Assembly (NCBI GenBank): GCA_964481775.1
Contig: CAYZUX010000002.1
Span: 20,221-84,220, forward strand
Length of the DNA: 64,000 bases
Origin: an uncultured bacterium
GTDB lineage: Bacteria; Hinthialibacterota; Hinthialibacteria; OLB16
Reading direction: 5' to 3'
Both the position numbers and the translations under genes were made by a program. Under the pieces are notes generated by a model. The model was not told the DNA's origin and ran no database searches. It saw nothing but the letters and a program-made list of their open reading frames with translations. Position 1 is the stretch's first letter. Every line of letters begins with the position of its first letter. Of this stretch, positions 2,735 to 27,440 are shown one piece after another.

Positions 2735-3853
2735 GTGACTGTCAGTCCAGTGTTGAGGGAGGTCAAGGTAATGAATAGTCAAGGTACCCGGGGAACCTGG
2801 GGAATTCGTTTCCTGATTCACTTCTTCACCGTCGTCCTTGGGATTCTCATTTTCTGGCTTCTCGGTTTCCTTATCCAGGATATCAAGTCAATCCAAGGCC
2901 CCCTCTACAACGACATTGAACGCAAGTATGTCGACCTGAGTCTGATCCAGAAACAAGAGGATCTTGTAAAGCAGATTACCAGCCTCGATCGGGAAATCGC
3001 CAATAAGCGCGAGGAACAGAACCTGGTGGGCAACAGCTCCGAGAACCTCCAACGCACCATCAACCAACTGCTGGAGCTGCAGAAGCTCAGCATCGAGAGA
3101 CAGGTGTCACTTCCTGAATCCGATCAGGCCGACCTGTCTTTGAGCCTCTCTCATTTCCTGGAGAGTCAAAAGAACTATCAAACGCTGAACCAGGAAATCT
3201 CTGGGCTGCTCCTGAAAAAGGAATCACTCGATGCAGAGAAAAGACAGCTGGATGAGGAAATTGAAAAGAAAAGAGAACCAGCCAGAGCGGAATTTGACCA
3301 ATTGTTGGAGAAACACAATTTCAAGCTGGCCTGCATTCAACTGGCTTTTCTGATACCACTGCTCGTTGTCGCAGGATATCTGCTGATCCGTTGGCGTGGG
3401 ATCATCTACTTCCCACTCATCCTCGCCTTCAGTGGAGCCACACTGGTGAAAACCGTCGCTGTGATCCACGATTATTTTCCATCACGCTATTTCAAGTATA
3501 TTGTTACGTTAGGTCTCCTGGTGGTCGTCGCTCAATTTCTCATTTATCTGATCAGAATGATTGCCTATCCCAAGATGGCATGGGTTGCCAAACAGTACCG
3601 TGAGGCATATGAAAGATTTCTCTGCCCGGTCTGCGAGTACCCGATCAGGACGGGACCACGGAAATTCCTTTATTGGACCCGTCGGACTGTCCATAGGGTA
3701 TTGCCTCAAGGAGATCCCTCCTCCACTGACACTCCCTACACATGCCCTTCCTGTGGTACTGTCCTTTACGAAGTCTGCGGCAACTGCGAAAAGATCAGGC
3801 ACTCCCTGCTTGCTCACTGTGAGCATTGTGGAACGAAGAAAGAGATTGGATGA
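2735..3853 (+). CDS. Uncharacterised membrane protein: TM1, ~150-aa coiled coil, three TM helices, C-terminal double zinc ribbon (4 CxxC)
   Basis: Hydrophobic segment FLIHFFTVVLGILIFWLLGFLI, a long heptad/charged region, three further TM helices, then CPVC...CPSC...CGNC...CEHC. Alternative start MNSQG at 2771. No family recognised. Confidence 0.5.
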   Translation: MTVSPVLREVKVMNSQGTRGTWGIRFLIHFFTVVLGILIFWLLGFLIQDIKSIQGPLYNDIERKYVDLSLIQKQEDLVKQITSLDREIANKREEQNLVGNSSENLQRTINQLLELQKLSIERQVSLPESDQADLSLSLSHFLESQKNYQTLNQEISGLLLKKESLDAEKRQLDEEIEKKREPARAEFDQLLEKHNFKLACIQLAFLIPLLVVAGYLLIRWRGIIYFPLILAFSGATLVKTVAVIHDYFPSRYFKYIVTLGLLVVVAQFLIYLIRMIAYPKMAWVAKQYREAYERFLCPVCEYPIRTGPRKFLYWTRRTVHRVLPQGDPSSTDTPYTCPSCGTVLYEVCGNCEKIRHSLLAHCEHCGTKKEIG

Positions 3854-21839: not shown

Positions 21840-22877
21840 CTACACTCCGCACCTTGCCCCACGGAACTGCTGGAGCACGCGCAGGTCGTTTTCATACAAC
21901 ATGCGGATGTCGGGGATGCCATACTTGATCATCGCCAAGCGTTCGACCCCCATGCCAAAGGCGAAACCGCTCCACTCCTCAGGATCAATCTGGCAGGCCA
22001 GGAGCACATTGGGATGCACCAATCCCGCACCGCCCATTTCGAGCCAGCGCCCCTTGCCCAGAGTGGTCTCAAACCACATATCCACCTCCGCACTCGGTTC
22101 GGTGAAAGGGAAGAAGCTCGGACGGAAACGCAGGGAGGCCTCGGGACCGAAGAGCCCTTTCATCAGGGTCTCCAGAGTCCATTTCAGATGCCCCATGGAG
22201 ATTCCCTTCCCTACCAGAAGACCTTCAATCTGGTGGAACATCGGCAGGTGGGTTGGGTCGCTGTCTCGCCGGTAGACTCTTCCAGGCACTAAAACCTTAA
22301 GGGGCGGTTTGTGGTTCTCCATGAAGTGAATCTGCCCGTTGGATGTGTGCGAACGCAGGAGCAAGCCTCCCTCCAAAAAGAAGGTGTCCTGCATATCACG
22401 GGCGGGGTGGTCCGGGGGGAAATTCAAAGCCTCGAAGTTGTAGTAATCGCTCTCGATCTCACGGTCATCATGGATGTCATAGCCCATCCGCATGAAGATC
22501 GAAGTGACTTCATCGATGATCAGACTGACAGGGTGGCAAGAACCAACCTCCGCGCCACGTCCAGGCAGGGTGATATCGAGCCGCTCTTCCTCCAGGCGTC
22601 TGGCCAGAGCCAGCTCCTCCAGGCGCAGGCTGGCCTGCTCCAACGCTGCCTCAACCTCATCATGAAGGCGATTGACCTCGGCGCCGGCTTGCGGACGCTG
22701 TTCGGGCGGGAGTGCTCCAAGGCTTTTCAGGAGCCCCTTGATGGATCCTTTTTTTCCAAGAAACTGGACACGGACTTCTTCCAGGGCACGTAAATCGTTG
22801 ACCTCCGCCAACGCTTTGAGAGCATTTGCACGGATGCTGCTTAGCTTTTCCGGGAGGTTTGTATCCACGACCGTCAT
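21840..22877 (-). CDS. pheS: Phenylalanine--tRNA ligase alpha subunit
   Basis: Class II aaRS motifs including FRPSFFPFTEPSAEVD and GAGLVHPNVL. Confidence 0.95.
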   Translation of the reverse strand: MTVVDTNLPEKLSSIRANALKALAEVNDLRALEEVRVQFLGKKGSIKGLLKSLGALPPEQRPQAGAEVNRLHDEVEAALEQASLRLEELALARRLEEERLDITLPGRGAEVGSCHPVSLIIDEVTSIFMRMGYDIHDDREIESDYYNFEALNFPPDHPARDMQDTFFLEGGLLLRSHTSNGQIHFMENHKPPLKVLVPGRVYRRDSDPTHLPMFHQIEGLLVGKGISMGHLKWTLETLMKGLFGPEASLRFRPSFFPFTEPSAEVDMWFETTLGKGRWLEMGGAGLVHPNVLLACQIDPEEWSGFAFGMGVERLAMIKYGIPDIRMLYENDLRVLQQFRGARCGV

Positions 22878-22897
22878 GGAAGCTCCGGAGACCGGGA

Positions 22898-23263
22898 TCA
22901 GTGCGCGGCAGAAAGGGCGCTCTTGGCCTGTTCGGCGATAGCGCCGAAGGCGGCCGCATCATCGATCGCCAGTCCCGCCAGGGTCTTCCGGTCGATCTCC
23001 ACCCCGGCTTTGTTCAGACCATCGATCAGCTGGCTGTAATTGAGGCCATGCTGACGAGCCGCGGCACCGATCCGGACAATCCACAGGGCACGGAACTCGC
23101 GTTTGCGCCTCCGGCGGTCACGGTAGGAGTACGCCAAAGCTTTCCAGACACCGGCATGGGCGGAGCGGTAGAGCTTCCCGCGGCCAGCGAAAAAGCCTTT
23201 GGCCATCTTCATCACTTTTTTCCGGCGCCGCCTGGAAGCCGGATTATTGGTTGCGCGTGGCAT
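22898..23263 (-). CDS. rplT: 50S ribosomal protein L20
   Basis: [41 protein letters not shown] matches the L20 consensus. Confidence 0.95.
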
Positions 23264-23396
23264 TTCCTGTTTTCTCCTTAGTCAACCTTGTCGGGTGGGA
23301 TTTACCCTTTGTCCCTGGTCATTTTTGTAGGGTGGGGCTTGCCCCACCTGGTGCAGCAACGGGGGAAATCGTCGGCGGGTCGAGCCCCGCCCTGCC

Positions 23397-23591
23397 TCAC
23401 AATCCAAGCATCCTCCGGACACGACCCGCATCGGTGGACGCAACCGTGGTGGCTTTGCGCAACCCTCTTTTGCGTTTCGTGTTCTTGCTGGTCAGGAGGT
23501 GGCTGTGATAAGCCTTATTCCTCTTGATCTTCCCCTTCTTCGTCAAAGAGAAGCGTTTCGCCGCGCTTCTCAGTGTCTTCACCTTCGGCAT
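23397..23591 (-). CDS. rpmI: 50S ribosomal protein L35
   Basis: MPKVKTLRSAAKRFSLTKKGKIKRNKAYHSHLLTSK. The true start is MPKVKT, 5 codons inside the track ORF. Confidence 0.9.
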   Translation of the reverse strand: MPKVKTLRSAAKRFSLTKKGKIKRNKAYHSHLLTSKNTKRKRGLRKATTVASTDAGRVRRMLGL

Positions 23592-24234
23592 GTTTCTCTC
23601 CTTCATTAACGGGAGTGGCTCCCGCCTTGGCTTCTTTCTCTTCCTGCTTCCTCAGGCGTTCCAGGCGTGCTTTTTCCGCCTTGACTCCCGCCGCATCCGG
23701 CCCCAGGACCATGATCATGTTCCGTCCCTCGGACTGAGGGCGAGATTCCACGATGGCGATGGTCTTCAGATCATCGATGACACGTTGGAGAAGCTTCATC
23801 CCGAATTCCAGGTGATTCCGCTCCCTGCCCCGGAACATCAACACAAATTTGACTTTGTCGTTTTGCAGGAGGAACTTCCGGGCACCACGAATCTTGACTT
23901 CATAGTCATTCTCGCTGATACGCGGGCGGAGTTTGACCTCCTTGACATCAATGGTGTGTTGTTTCCGCCGTGCATCCTTTTGCTTTTTTGCCTGCTCATA
24001 CTTGTAGTTGCCGTAATCCATGATCCGGCAAACATAAGGACGAGCCGCCGATGAGACCTCGACCAGGTCAAGCGCCGCCGCTTCCGCCCGTTTTAGGGCC
24101 TCCTGGATAGGGACGATACCGACATGTTGCCCGCTCTCATCGATCAGGCGGACTTCACTCTCGCGGATATCGTGATTGATACGGTCTTTCGGCTTGGGGA
24201 TCTTGCCGGGGATAAAACGCGGACGCCGTAGGAT
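23515..24234 (-). CDS. infC: Translation initiation factor IF-3, inferred non-AUG (AUC) start and ~60-aa charged C-terminal extension
   Basis: The IF3 N-domain (PKDRINHDIRESEVRLIDESGQHVGIVPIQEALKRAEAAALDLVEVSSAARPYVCRIMDYG) lies upstream of the first ATG. The frame opens directly after the thrS TAG. The only start-like codon after GGAGG is ATC at 24232-24234. C-terminal domain: FRGRERNHLEFGMKLLQRVIDDL...RNMIMVLGP. Confidence 0.8.
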   Translation of the reverse strand: MLRRPRFIPGKIPKPKDRINHDIRESEVRLIDESGQHVGIVPIQEALKRAEAAALDLVEVSSAARPYVCRIMDYGNYKYEQAKKQKDARRKQHTIDVKEVKLRPRISENDYEVKIRGARKFLLQNDKVKFVLMFRGRERNHLEFGMKLLQRVIDDLKTIAIVESRPQSEGRNMIMVLGPDAAGVKAEKARLERLRKQEEKEAKAGATPVNEGEKHAEGEDTEKRGETLLFDEEGEDQEE

Positions 24235-24249
24235 TGCAGAATTCCTCCT

Positions 24250-26241
24250 CTAAACAGTCTGAACCGATGGTCTGGCCAGCTCCCGCTTCAGTCGCGAGAG
24301 CGCATCTTCCAAGGGCAGGCTTCCCTGGTCCCCTTGGGTACGCACCCTGATCGAAACACTCCCCTGCTCGGATTCACGTTTTCCGATCACGAGCATAAAG
24401 GGGACTTTTTCAGTTTCAGCGGAACGGATCTTGTAGCCGATCTTCTCCGCACGTTTGTCAAGTTCAGTACGAATACCCACTTGGCGGCAGTGAGCATACA
24501 CTTTTTCCGCGTAAGGCAAAACCTCATCCACCACCGGAAGGACCCGAACCTGCACCGGGGCCAGCCAGGAAGGGAAAGCGCCCGCGAAATGCTCGATCAG
24601 GATCCCCACGAAACGCTCGAAGGAACCGAAAGGCGCACGGTGAATCATAATCGGCCGATGGGGATTTCCATCGGCACCAGTATACTTGAGGTCAAATCGT
24701 TCGGGCAACACATAGTCCACTTGAACTGTACCCAGTTGCCACTCACGGTTCAGGCAGTCGCGTACCACGAAATCGATTTTGGGGCCATAAAAAGCGGCTT
24801 CTCCCAGCTCCTCACTGAAATCGAGGGTCATCCCTTTCAGCACATTGCGGATATTGGACTCGGCCTGGTCCCACAAGTTTGGACTGCCGCCATATTTATC
24901 GCTGCCGGGATCCCGTTTCCCAAAGCGGATCCTGTAATCTTTAAAGTCAAGGCTCTTAAGAACAAAGAGAACCAGGTCAACAGTCTGGGCCAGTTCCTCC
25001 TCGAGTTGCTCAGGAGTGACAAAGAGATGCGCATCATCCTGGGTGAACCCACGTACGCGGGTCATCCCGGAAAGCTCCCCCGACTGCTCATACCGGTAAA
25101 CTGTTCCAAACTCGGCTAACCGGTAAGGCAGGTCCCGGTAGCTTTTGGGTGTGGCCTCGTAAATCTTGATGTGGTGCGGGCAATTCATCGGCTTGAGGAG
25201 GTAACCCTCCTCAGAGGTATCCTCCTCTGAGCCATGTTCATTCATATGGATCGGTGGGAATTGGGAGTCCTTGTAGTAGGGGAAATGACCACTGGTCCGG
25301 TAAAGGTCGAGCTTCCCGATATGAGGCGTGTACACAGTCTGATAACCATACTCAACCAGTTTTCCACGCAGGAAGGATTCGAGTTCATAGCGGACCGCAG
25401 CCCCCTTGGGGAGCCAGAGAACCAAACCGCCACCAACCTCGCTGGAAATCGTAAAGAGATCAAGTTCCTGACCGAGCTTGCGGTGATCACGCTTCTTGGC
25501 TTCTTCGATCTGTTCGAGATAGGTGTCCAATTCCTTCTGGCTTGGAAATGCGGTCAGGTAGACACGTTGGAGCTGTGGCTGGCTTTCATCCCCATGCCAA
25601 TAAGCACCGGCGGTCATGAGCAGTTTGAAGGCTTTGATTCTTCCGGTACTGGGAACATGCGCTCCGAGACAGAGATCCACCCAATCTCCCTGGCGGTAAC
25701 AGGAGATGGTTTCGCCACGCCGGTCGAGTTCCTCAATCATTTCTTCCTTGAATGGGTTACGTGTCTGTCCCAGGAGTGAGAGACTCTCCCGGGCACCCGA
25801 TTCAACCCTCTCAAGGGGAACATCCGCCGCACAGATCGTGGCCATCCGTTCCTCAATCTTCTTCAGGTCTTCAGAAGTAAAGGGACGATCCACCCGGAAA
25901 TCATAGAAATAACGTTCATCTGCCCAGTCTCCAGCCGCTGGTTGAGCACCGGGGAACAATTCCATCACCGCCTGAGCCATCACATGACCACAGCTGTGTC
26001 TGTAAACCGCACGACCTTCCGGATCTTTGAATGTAAGAATCCTGAGTGAGCCTGAATTCCGAATGGGAGCCGACAGATCCAGAACCCGGCCATTAACGGA
26101 AACAGCCAGTGCATCCGCCGCAAGACGTTTGCCGATGGATTGCGCCAGTTCCAGGCCTGTGATGCCCGGGGGGACCTTCCTCTCACTCCCATCCGGCAGG
26201 GTCAGATGGATATATTCATTTCCAGTATTGTCGGTTGACAT
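24250..26241 (-). CDS. thrS: Threonine--tRNA ligase
   Basis: TGS N-domain and class II core (HRDLPYRLAEFGTVYRYEQSGELSGMTRVRGFTQDDAHLF). Its stop TAG is followed 15 nt later by infC. Confidence 0.95.
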   Translation of the reverse strand: MSTDNTGNEYIHLTLPDGSERKVPPGITGLELAQSIGKRLAADALAVSVNGRVLDLSAPIRNSGSLRILTFKDPEGRAVYRHSCGHVMAQAVMELFPGAQPAAGDWADERYFYDFRVDRPFTSEDLKKIEERMATICAADVPLERVESGARESLSLLGQTRNPFKEEMIEELDRRGETISCYRQGDWVDLCLGAHVPSTGRIKAFKLLMTAGAYWHGDESQPQLQRVYLTAFPSQKELDTYLEQIEEAKKRDHRKLGQELDLFTISSEVGGGLVLWLPKGAAVRYELESFLRGKLVEYGYQTVYTPHIGKLDLYRTSGHFPYYKDSQFPPIHMNEHGSEEDTSEEGYLLKPMNCPHHIKIYEATPKSYRDLPYRLAEFGTVYRYEQSGELSGMTRVRGFTQDDAHLFVTPEQLEEELAQTVDLVLFVLKSLDFKDYRIRFGKRDPGSDKYGGSPNLWDQAESNIRNVLKGMTLDFSEELGEAAFYGPKIDFVVRDCLNREWQLGTVQVDYVLPERFDLKYTGADGNPHRPIMIHRAPFGSFERFVGILIEHFAGAFPSWLAPVQVRVLPVVDEVLPYAEKVYAHCRQVGIRTELDKRAEKIGYKIRSAETEKVPFMLVIGKRESEQGSVSIRVRTQGDQGSLPLEDALSRLKRELARPSVQTV

Positions 26242-26365
26242 TCTCGTTCTTCTCTCAGAAGTACCAGCACAGGACTGTCCTATCGCCAGAAAACCTCCTA
26301 AATAACAAACAGCCCGTTCCCCGGACTCAGGCGCCGGGTACGGGCCTCTTGTGTTACGGGGTTAA

Positions 26366-26442
26366 TGGTGGGCGCTACTGGACTTGAACCAGTGACCCCT
26401 TCCATGTCAAGGAAGTACTCTAGCCAGCTGAGCTAAGCGCCC
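26366..26442 (-). tRNA. tRNA-Val (anticodon GAC), 77 nt with encoded CCA
   Basis: RC reads GGGCGCTTAGCTCAGCTGGCTAGAGTACTTCCTTGACATGGAAGGGGTCACTGGTTCAAGTCCAGTAGCGCCCACCA. Acceptor 7 bp GGGCGCT/AGCGCCC; anticodon stem CTTCC/GGAAG with loop TTGACAT; T-arm ACTGG/TTCAAGT/CCAGT. Confidence 0.85.
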
Positions 26443-26471
26443 TTTACTATAAGATTATCACGTGGCGGAGA

Positions 26472-27440
26472 ATGTATAAACCCTCTGGAAAGTTGTCAAC
26501 AGCCATGGAACCTCCTTTTCGCGACGATCGACTCAAAAAGGTTCATACCACGCAACAACCTGAATTCGGCCGACTCCTCTTTACCACCCGGCGCAGGCTT
26601 GAATCTCCCCTTTCCACAAGGGAGGGATTGGCCGAAAGATTGGGAATTTCCAGCAGGTTGTTAACACAGATTGAAAAAGGTGAAAAAAGCCCTCCTGAAA
26701 AGGTTGTTGAGTGGCTGGAAACAATCCTTCAATCGCCTTTACCCCCTCAAAGGGGATCAAGAGAAGGGATCCTTTCAGACATTCTCAAAGGCTTCCAATT
26801 TCCAGAATCAGCGGAGATTCTTGATATTCCATGCGGACCCGGAAGACTTACCTGGGAACTGCGGAAACTGGGTTATCGTGTGACTGCCGCCGATCTCGTC
26901 CCCGAATGTTTCGAGGCAGGGGAGCCACCAGCTGTCCATGCGGACATGAATCACCCGCTTCCCTTCCCGGATGAATCATTCGATCTGATCCTTTCCGCCG
27001 AGGGAGTTGAACACCTCGAAAATCCCTGGCTGGCTTTCAGGGAGTTTTCAAGGATCCTCAAGACCTCAGGAACTTTGGTCATCACCACACCCAATTATTC
27101 CAACATCGAACGGCGGGTTGCATACCTTCTAAAAGGTTCTGCAGCTCGCCCCTCAGAAAGGATGGATTCATCTGGTCAGGAGTCACCCCATCTCTCGACC
27201 TTCCCGACCTGTTTCTGGAAAATGGCGGGGGAGCGAGCGGGGCTACAATTAATCTCATTGGACTCGTTCTCACCTCGCCCAAAACAATGGTTTTATTGGC
27301 CTTTAGCCTGCTTGGTCCATCTCCTCAGCCGCTTGGCTACCAGGAAAAGCCGTGAAAGATACTCGATGGATTGGACTCAAGGAATGAATGCTCTCCTGGG
27401 CGGCAGATCGCTTGTTATGGTCTTCAAAAAAGCGCCCTGA
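26472..27440 (+). CDS. HTH (XRE-like) domain fused to class I SAM-dependent methyltransferase
   Basis: LSTREGLAERLGISSRLLTQIEKGEKSP is a helix-turn-helix. Methyltransferase motif I ILDIPCGPGRLTWEL and post-I VTAADL. Confidence 0.6.
   Translation: MYKPSGKLSTAMEPPFRDDRLKKVHTTQQPEFGRLLFTTRRRLESPLSTREGLAERLGISSRLLTQIEKGEKSPPEKVVEWLETILQSPLPPQRGSREGILSDILKGFQFPESAEILDIPCGPGRLTWELRKLGYRVTAADLVPECFEAGEPPAVHADMNHPLPFPDESFDLILSAEGVEHLENPWLAFREFSRILKTSGTLVITTPNYSNIERRVAYLLKGSAARPSERMDSSGQESPHLSTFPTCFWKMAGERAGLQLISLDSFSPRPKQWFYWPLACLVHLLSRLATRKSRERYSMDWTQGMNALLGGRSLVMVFKKAP

Follow-up and report, generated by a model that had tools for sequence, protein, structure and literature searches.

A predicted AUC start codon and a C-terminal extension running into rpmI in the infC gene of an uncultured Hinthialibacterota bacterium

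The infC gene of this stretch of DNA (64,000 nucleotides, hereafter the window) is best explained as a whole by a model in which IF3 is a protein of 239 amino acids, is initiated at an AUC codon and overlaps at its 3′ end the following gene, rpmI. A probability of about 0.85 is assigned to this reading. Its main value lies in annotation, as it gives a corrected gene model and leaves the current understanding unchanged. Residues are numbered here from the ATC at 24234-24232, taken as residue 1. WIN denotes the locus of the window, whereas L and P numbers denote comparison loci and proteins.

The features of the locus are collected in Table 1. Open reading frames and Pfam matches give the gene order thrS-infC-rpmI-rplT-pheS on the minus strand, and the same order is found in L081, L083, and L084. 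A tRNA-Val lies upstream of thrS (Rfam cmscan, 22000-27000). This is a genuine infC, which encodes both IF3 domains joined by a Lys-rich linker, with scores above the curated cut-offs. PF05198 (IF3_N) matches residues 19-88 (E 2.6e-30, 104.9 bits against a cut-off of 26.9), PF00707 (IF3_C) matches residues 95-179 (E 1.1e-32, 112.2 bits against 34.8), and TIGR00168 covers residues 16-180 (217.6 bits against 60). Solved IF3 chains also match the query, the best with an E value of 1.6e-49, and none of them aligns past residue 182.

Table 1. Features of the thrS-infC-rpmI-rplT-pheS locus in the window.
Feature	Coordinates	Strand	Basis or remark
thrS, threonyl-tRNA synthetase, 663 aa	24250..26241	-	ORF list; stop TAG 24252-24250
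Shine-Dalgarno sequence (SD) of infC, AGGAGG	24244..24249	-	abuts the thrS stop; 9 nt 5′ of ATC
infC candidate initiation codon ATC (AUC)	24232..24234	-	sequence and relatives
infC CDS, 239 codons and TAA (23517-23515)	23515..24234	-	translation, Pfam, TIGR00168
IF3 N-terminal extension, residues 2-18 (LRRPRFIPGKIPKPKDR)	24180..24231	-	precedes Pfam IF3_N
IF3 proximal tail, residues 180-205 (DAAGVKAEKARLERLRKQEEKEAKAG)	23620..23697	-	Lys/Glu-rich helix appended to IF3_C
IF3 distal tail, residues 206-239, acidic, disordered	23518..23619	-	AlphaFold2 and charge count
infC/rpmI out-of-frame overlap, 77 nt	23515..23591	-	IF3 residues 215-239 and stop against the first 26 rpmI codons
rpmI SD GAAGGAGAG	23606-23598	-	inside infC
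rpmI, ribosomal protein L35, 64 aa	23397..23591	-	Pfam PF01632, E 1.1e-23
rplT, ribosomal protein L20, 121 aa	22898..23263	-	Pfam PF00453, E 1.2e-40
pheS	22877..21840	-	ORF list; next after rplT

The first ATG, GTG, or TTG of the infC frame is the ATG at 24021, which lies inside IF3_N, and the open reading frame called mechanically from it has only 168 amino acids. Because the IF3_N match begins at residue 19, the N-domain is encoded wholly upstream of any canonical start, as an earlier note on this DNA had claimed. The same internal-start truncation by gene callers is frequent among public relatives, examples being the proteins of 210 (P0001), 168 (P0004), and 181 amino acids (P0015). The plus-strand antisense frames 23524-24054, 23251-23508, and 22826-23281 gave no match in a Pfam search, and the counts from promoter and terminator consensus scans were not above those of shuffles.

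The nearest loci come from uncultured MAGs, L001 and L002, whose IF3 proteins are 93% and 91% identical to that of the window. L003 is Candidatus Hinthialibacteria bacterium OLB16 (84% identity) and L004 is an "Omnitrophota" OLB16-2 MAG (71%). Further loci were added through protein look-ups, namely, L081/L082 (JGI and Logan), L083 (GCA_016706995.1), and L084 (JGI). The five independent related assemblies that keep both the start and the overlap are Ca. Hinthialibacterota-like, at 76-93% identity. Ca. Hinthialibacter is placed in a candidate phylum of its own in the NCBI taxonomy.

As previously noted, the infC frame opens directly after the TAG of thrS; it begins at 24249, shares its frame with thrS, and starts with AGGAGG (24249-24244) ahead of the ATC. 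Between the upstream stop and the ATC there are five sense codons (AGG AGG AAT TCT GCA), none start-like. The earlier description of this ATC as the sole start-like codon has to be narrowed, since four more in-frame ATC codons occur, at codons 8, 12, 19, and 23; what stands is that only the first is preceded by a SD. Indeed, its anti-SD duplex energy is -12.0 kcal/mol, while the ATC codons 8, 12, and 19 score from -0.9 to -1.7 kcal/mol. The arrangement AGGAGG-N9-ATC, followed by CTN, is common to WIN, L001, L002, L081, and L083/L003, with spacers that differ in sequence (ATTCTGCA, AACAAGCA, AACGAGCA, TGAGAACA, and AAACAGCG-like), and the GG.GG of the SD does not vary among the seven relatives aligned. 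Retention of the register across a variable spacer agrees with the non-AUG start that had been suggested. It is thus predicted, from these sequence comparisons, that IF3 translation in this organism begins at the AUC at 24234-24232.

The codons that follow behave as coding sequence. Over codons 2-7 (LRRPRF), WIN, L081, and L083 differ only synonymously (CTA/CTT, CGG/AGG/AGA, and CCG/CCA). Over codons 2-18, the changes are mostly at third positions, with synonymous to nonsynonymous ratios of 9:2 for WIN against L083 and 8:4 for WIN against L081, and therefore the peptide is taken to be translated from codon 2 on. A consensus fold around the infC start has a total energy of -5.4 kcal/mol. It contains a weak AGGA/UCCU pairing, which was rejected as a start-site structure, being of 4 bp and without meaningful covariation.

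Other start-like codons are found in some relatives. In L081, an in-frame ATG lies three codons 5′ of the ATC, within the variable spacer and at 0-nt spacing to the SD, and it is the start called by JGI. In L004 and L084, the ATC is replaced by GCT or ACC, and the codon after it is a CTG that lies 12 nt from the SD in the alignment. Because of an in-frame TAA in L004, no start-like codon other than this CTG precedes the conserved LRRSR there; in L084, a TTG located 3 nt past the SD is an alternative start. As these two loci carry CTG where ATC is absent, the wider clade appears to use a noncanonical infC start throughout, AUC or CUG. The comparison with orthologues that had been proposed therefore finds the AUC start, and with it the acidic tail described below, conserved in close relatives, with CTG in L004 and L084.

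Two other accounts of the start have to be weighed against initiation at the first AUC. IF3 could start farther downstream, at codon 8 or 12 (ATC in the window; GTG in L083 and L004), which would make the first ATC incidental. Codon 8 is a GTG in L003/L083, where the NCBI annotation places the start (P0003), a start-like codon stands at position 12 in each of the five relatives compared (ATC, ATC, ATT, ATT, and GTG), and the TIGR00168 alignment begins only at residue 16. However, these downstream codons have no SD, with energies of -1.7 to -3.2 kcal/mol (-6.5 for the codon-12 ATT of L003) against -12.0 kcal/mol for the first ATC. The synonymous-only change over codons 2-7 contrasts with the adjoining 9-nt spacer, which changes freely, and conservation of the LRR(P/S)R motif at the protein level extends to P0002, P0009, and L004, as far as relatives of 68-71% identity. 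A downstream start is therefore considered very unlikely. Slightly less so, although still improbable, is the proposal that infC is translated mainly by termination-reinitiation at the thrS TAG, so that a near-cognate codon would be tolerated through coupling rather than serve IF3-sensitive de novo initiation. In WIN, L001, and L002, the thrS stop abuts the SD and lies 15 nt from the ATC, and reinitiation is a known, IF3-dependent route in polycistronic operons (PMC2268962). On the other hand, the distance from the thrS stop to the ATC is not conserved (about 27 nt in L083, about 63 nt in L081), whereas the SD-N9-ATC register is fixed, which argues for SD-directed initiation and against an obligatory termination-reinitiation; moreover, no thrS-like coding sequence directly precedes infC in L004. 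Neither route excludes the other.

Initiation at the first AUC places this gene in a class already present in the literature, and an AUC start is ordinary for infC. The start codon of the Myxococcus xanthus dsg gene is reportedly also AUC. A survey of 81 infC loci from many phyla, in which the 25 codons before the IF3_N anchor were scanned, found no ATG, GTG, or TTG in that interval in 53 of them. The candidate with the best SD was a near-cognate codon in 53 of the 81 loci (ATA in 14, ATC in 12, ATT in 12, ATA/ATT in 11, and CTG in 4) and ATG in one; in the other 27, the SD was weak or there was no candidate. In the Anaeromyxobacter-like L085, both an ATG and an ATC follow the GGAGG, at 3 and 9 nt, respectively. 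It has been reported that infC uses AUU or AUC and is a target of autoregulation by IF3 (PMC5499595), and ATA has been proposed as the infC start in Deinococcus-Thermus (PMC2830850).

IF3 autoregulation through the start codon is known for the AUU of E. coli (PMC5499595 and PMC2830850, citing Butler 1987), and by analogy a similar control may operate through the AUC described here. The strong AGGAGG nine nucleotides upstream would place the AUC at 24234-24232 in the P site. IF3 destabilizes 30S initiation complexes formed on codons other than AUG, GUG, and UUG, and this discrimination gives the negative feedback established in E. coli. As proposed for this gene, IF3 synthesis would then go down when IF3 is abundant and up when it is scarce. 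The resemblance to E. coli infC extends to the operon order thrS-infC-rpmI-rplT, the near-cognate AUH start behind a good SD, the location of the infC ribosome binding site at the very end of thrS, and the two-domain IF3. Conversely, the codon is AUC here and AUU in E. coli. If the prediction is right, a poorly studied candidate phylum joins the lineages that keep a near-cognate infC start, in support of the generality of IF3 autoregulation.

Sixty residues (180-239) lie beyond IF3_C, in agreement with the C-terminal tail of about 60 amino acids described from the sequence, and the proximal, helical part of this tail is under coding constraint. An AlphaFold2 model built on a 42-sequence alignment (mean pLDDT 88.5) shows a helix at residues 181-205, with pLDDT of about 96, whereas residues 206-239 are disordered, without secondary structure and with pLDDT of 52-59. 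Codon-position counts indicate purifying selection in the infC frame over codons 2-18, the core, and residues 180-205, while residues 206-214 are weakly constrained. In the 180-205 segment, the ratio of synonymous to nonsynonymous changes is 9:1 for pairs of close relatives and 13:7-8 for distant pairs, and the helix motif GVKAEKARLE is retained in relatives. Judged on these counts, residues 180-205 are a real, constrained coding extension.

The distal tail has a net charge of -11. Acidic distal tails, with net charges from -5 to -36, are present in many Omnitrophota/Hinthialibacterota IF3s whether or not they overlap rpmI (P0009, P0010, P0017, and L004 are examples without overlap), and on this sequence comparison the acidity of the distal tail is a compositional feature of the whole clade. 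The frequency of such tails in nonoverlapping relatives means that composition may matter even where sequence does not, and thus the charge of the overlapping part of the tail may be under selection, though its sequence is unconstrained. The IF3s of this group (P0002-P0019, L001-L004, and L081-L084) share with the window an (I/T)LRR(P/S)R motif in the N-terminal extension, the GVKAEKARLE helix, and the acidic distal tail. The closest relatives also share the AUC start and the rpmI overlap. In L004 and L084, which are more distant, the start is apparently CUG (or TTG/GTG) and infC ends before rpmI.

As predicted, the protein would consist of a canonical IF3 with an 18-residue basic N-terminal extension, a conserved charged helix of 25 residues, and a disordered acidic end of about 34 residues. 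The IF3 of E. coli has 180 amino acids and differs by lacking the 18-residue N-terminal and the 60-residue C-terminal extension seen here. IF3s with C-terminal extensions are a known, polyphyletic class that includes Dsg and the Euglena chloroplast and mitochondrial factors. Dsg, the IF3 of M. xanthus, is extended at its C-terminus by more than 60 amino acids (PMC2241858, citing Cheng 1994 and Kalman 1994), and in this respect the window protein, with its extension of about 60 residues past IF3_C, resembles Dsg. It is not Dsg-like in composition, however: the Myxococcota-like tails (P0062, P0073, P0077, and P0098) are Pro/Ala-rich with a distal net charge of 0 to +1, as opposed to -11 here. 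A comparison with Dsg-type tails found only a short charged segment beside IF3_C to be loosely similar. The Anaeromyxobacter-like L085 differs further in having a 35-nt gap between infC and rpmI, and thus no overlap.

The terminal extensions of the Euglena chloroplast and mammalian mitochondrial IF3s modulate subunit binding or release and are dispensable for the core activity (PMC2241858). In these factors, as in the window protein, extensions of about 30-60 amino acids flank a bacterial-type core, and they provide the best functional analogy for the helix and acidic tail, although the lineages are unrelated and no sequence similarity to the present tail was found. By this analogy, the helix together with the acidic tail probably tunes the binding of IF3 to, or its release from, the ribosomal subunits. 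The conserved helix 181-205 followed by an acidic disordered tail would thus be a candidate modulator of ribosome binding across Omnitrophota/Hinthialibacterota.

The last part of the tail is encoded within rpmI. The infC stop lies 77 nt past the rpmI ATG at 23591 (23591-23515+1), and rpmI is in the +1 frame, so that the overlap and its coordinates are as originally described. In E. coli, by contrast, infC and rpmI are separated by a structured spacer which holds the L20 operator (PMC1888825). An overlap in the same register is present in independent samples, with a length of 77 nt in WIN and L002, 68 nt in L001, 62 nt in L083, and 53 nt in L081 (L081/L082), whereas in the sister lineages L004, L084, and L047 infC ends 12-161 nt before rpmI. 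The gap between infC and rpmI has a median of +14 nt in the 73 surveyed loci that have rpmI downstream, nine of which overlap. The earlier note had called the overlap unusually long, and it is indeed the longest out-of-frame one of the 73; the qualification is that two Firmicutes loci, L017 and L022, have independent 44-nt overlaps in the same register, and that the feature is best read as a displaced stop.

The pattern of substitution in the overlap differs from that of the helix. Over residues 215-236, the infC frame has 0 synonymous and 8-13 nonsynonymous changes, and these cluster at the first codon position of infC, which corresponds to the third of rpmI. Since the changes are all nonsynonymous for IF3 and fall at third positions of L35, only L35 is constrained there. 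A dual-coding test for purifying selection in both frames of the overlap found it in the L35 frame and only acidic composition retained in that of IF3. The peptide read on into rpmI (...LLFDEEGEDQEE) is acidic in all five sequences, with a net charge of about -4 to -10 by hand count, because the AAG Lys codons of the L35 N-terminus, after a codon ending in G, are read as GAA or GAG.

In the overlapping part of the tail the IF3 sequence shows no constraint, and the long overlap is therefore best read as a lineage-specific displacement of the stop codon rather than a designed feature, this being the simplest reading. The overlap is labile in evolution and, by these codon comparisons, free of constraint in the infC frame. 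On the displaced-stop reading, the last 25 residues of IF3 would exist because in this sub-lineage infC lacks a stop upstream of rpmI. The ribosome would read on through the 5′ end of rpmI in a -1-shifted register to the first stop, and the resulting peptide would drift freely in sequence while L35 is conserved. The locus would then offer a small, clean example of a C-terminal extension arising by displacement of a stop into the next gene, in which the composition of the new peptide is dictated by the other frame, with Lys codons read as Glu.

Three other accounts of the tail and overlap were considered. The least credible, and one that can in practice be set aside, is that they result from a sequencing or assembly frameshift near 23515-23600, as the earlier note had cautioned, the real infC stopping before rpmI. 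It finds some support in L003, which differs by one C from the near-identical L083 in a C6/C7 run, showing that related assemblies do contain indel errors or variation in this part of the sequence. Nevertheless, WIN, L001, L002, L081/L082, and L083, from different samples, all lack a stop before rpmI and read into that gene in the same register, and the recurrence of a 53-77-nt overlap in independent assemblies excludes such a frameshift in the window. Furthermore, residues 180-205 change mostly at third positions of the infC frame, and no homopolymer run is present at the infC/rpmI junction of the window. The one-C difference turns L003 into an in-frame IF3-L35 fusion ORF, which is an assembly error or a strain variation; in either case the segment tolerates change. 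This fusion was also considered as a product of -1 frameshifting and rejected, as the shift needed is +1 and CCCAAAA is therefore not a -1 site.

It is somewhat easier to conceive, though doubtful, that the overlap is a selected device in which ribosomes translating the infC tail gate the SD and start of rpmI, by occlusion or unfolding, so that IF3 synthesis would control that of L35 and L20 in place of the L20 operator of E. coli or Bacillus. The overlap is retained across the sub-lineage at 76-93% identity, no Rfam L20 or other ribosomal protein leader was found in 22000-27000, and in E. coli, too, the operator of rpmI reaches into infC (PMC1888825). Against this stand the variable length (53, 62, 68, and 77 nt, with one assembly carrying the in-frame fusion), the lack of constraint in the infC frame, the normal stop and 12-161-nt spacer of L004, L084, and L047, and an RNA structure around the rpmI ribosome binding site that is not significant (z = -1.18). 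Equally tentative is the idea that the lost infC stop has been co-opted, so that the acidic read-on peptide, made Glu-rich by the L35 Lys codons of the other frame, would serve as the acidic IF3 tail that the clade requires, while ribosomes passing over the rpmI start site as they translate infC would couple the output of L35 and L20 to IF3 synthesis. If this were true, a single 77-nt segment would act as the N-terminus of a ribosomal protein, as a charge-selected regulatory tail, and as a coupling device.

A hairpin in the rpmI-rplT spacer (GGTGGGGCAAGCCCCACC), which occurs once in the window, was examined as an L20 operator and rejected, as it is absent from L081/L083 and varies in copy number among close relatives. 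An Rfam cmscan of 22000-27000 (E<=1) for L20 leaders, T-boxes, and other cis-regulators returned the tRNA-Val only. The rpmI SD is strong and unpaired in the minimum free energy fold. Given this accessible SD and the lack of a detected known L20 leader, rpmI is probably initiated independently at its own SD inside infC.

infC of the window shares its reading frame with thrS, and the two genes are separated by just the TAG of thrS (24250-24252) and five sense codons (24232-24249 region). If this TAG were read through, a ThrRS-IF3 fusion would result; nothing suggests that such read-through occurs. The same-frame arrangement is not conserved in the JGI relative L081 or in L083 (GCA_016706995.1). 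Across the 2.2 kb 5′ of infC in L083 (L083:244-2500), where thrS is expected, the gene table of the locus is empty, and the DNA immediately 5′ of infC resembles a thrS 3′ end. thrS of this assembly may be frameshifted or may be merely absent from the index.

On the other side of infC, a fusion ORF is present in L003, the locus from the Ca. Hinthialibacteria OLB16 assembly. Here infC is in frame with rpmI, with no intervening stop, owing to a C6 run (3600-3640), whereas sequence comparison reveals C7 in the near-identical L083 (3079-3120). The resulting IF3-L35 ORF comprises 287 codons. A homopolymer error is probably responsible for this fusion, which could alternatively reflect true strain variation.

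In the Anaeromyxobacter-like locus L085 (1490-1510), the GGAGG of infC is followed by an ATG at 3 nt and by an ATC at 9 nt (ATG GCC ATC). The SD-N9-ATC register is identical to that of infC in the window, and therefore the annotated ATG of L085 may not be the true start.

In the OLB16-2 locus L004, the IF3 tail terminates in (EVES)n units that are repeated perfectly in tandem (EVESEVESEVES...; L004:3590-3694), and the related protein P0007 contains fewer of these units. Thus, the length of the acidic tail varies by repeat slippage in the OLB16-2 lineage.

The rpmI-rplT spacer, which ranges from 33 to 160 nt across the compared loci, carries two GC-rich hairpins in the window, GGGCGGGGCTCGACCCGCC and the palindrome GGTGGGGCAAGCCCCACC. 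Related hairpins differ in copy number among the closest relatives: L001 has three and L002 has one, and L081 and L083 have none. The palindrome occurs only once in the whole window. It may be a palindromic mobile element of small size, or else a hairpin that regulates rplT specifically.

Features of the window upstream of thrS and between rpmI and rplT
Feature	Position	Strand	Remark
Sigma-70-like match TTGACA-17-TACATT	26499-26471	minus	just upstream of tRNA-Val
tRNA-Val (GAC)	26366-26442	minus	~125 nt upstream of thrS, same strand
rpmI-rplT spacer	23264-23396	minus	133 nt
Palindrome GGTGGGGCAAGCCCCACC	23348-23331	minus	in rpmI-rplT spacer
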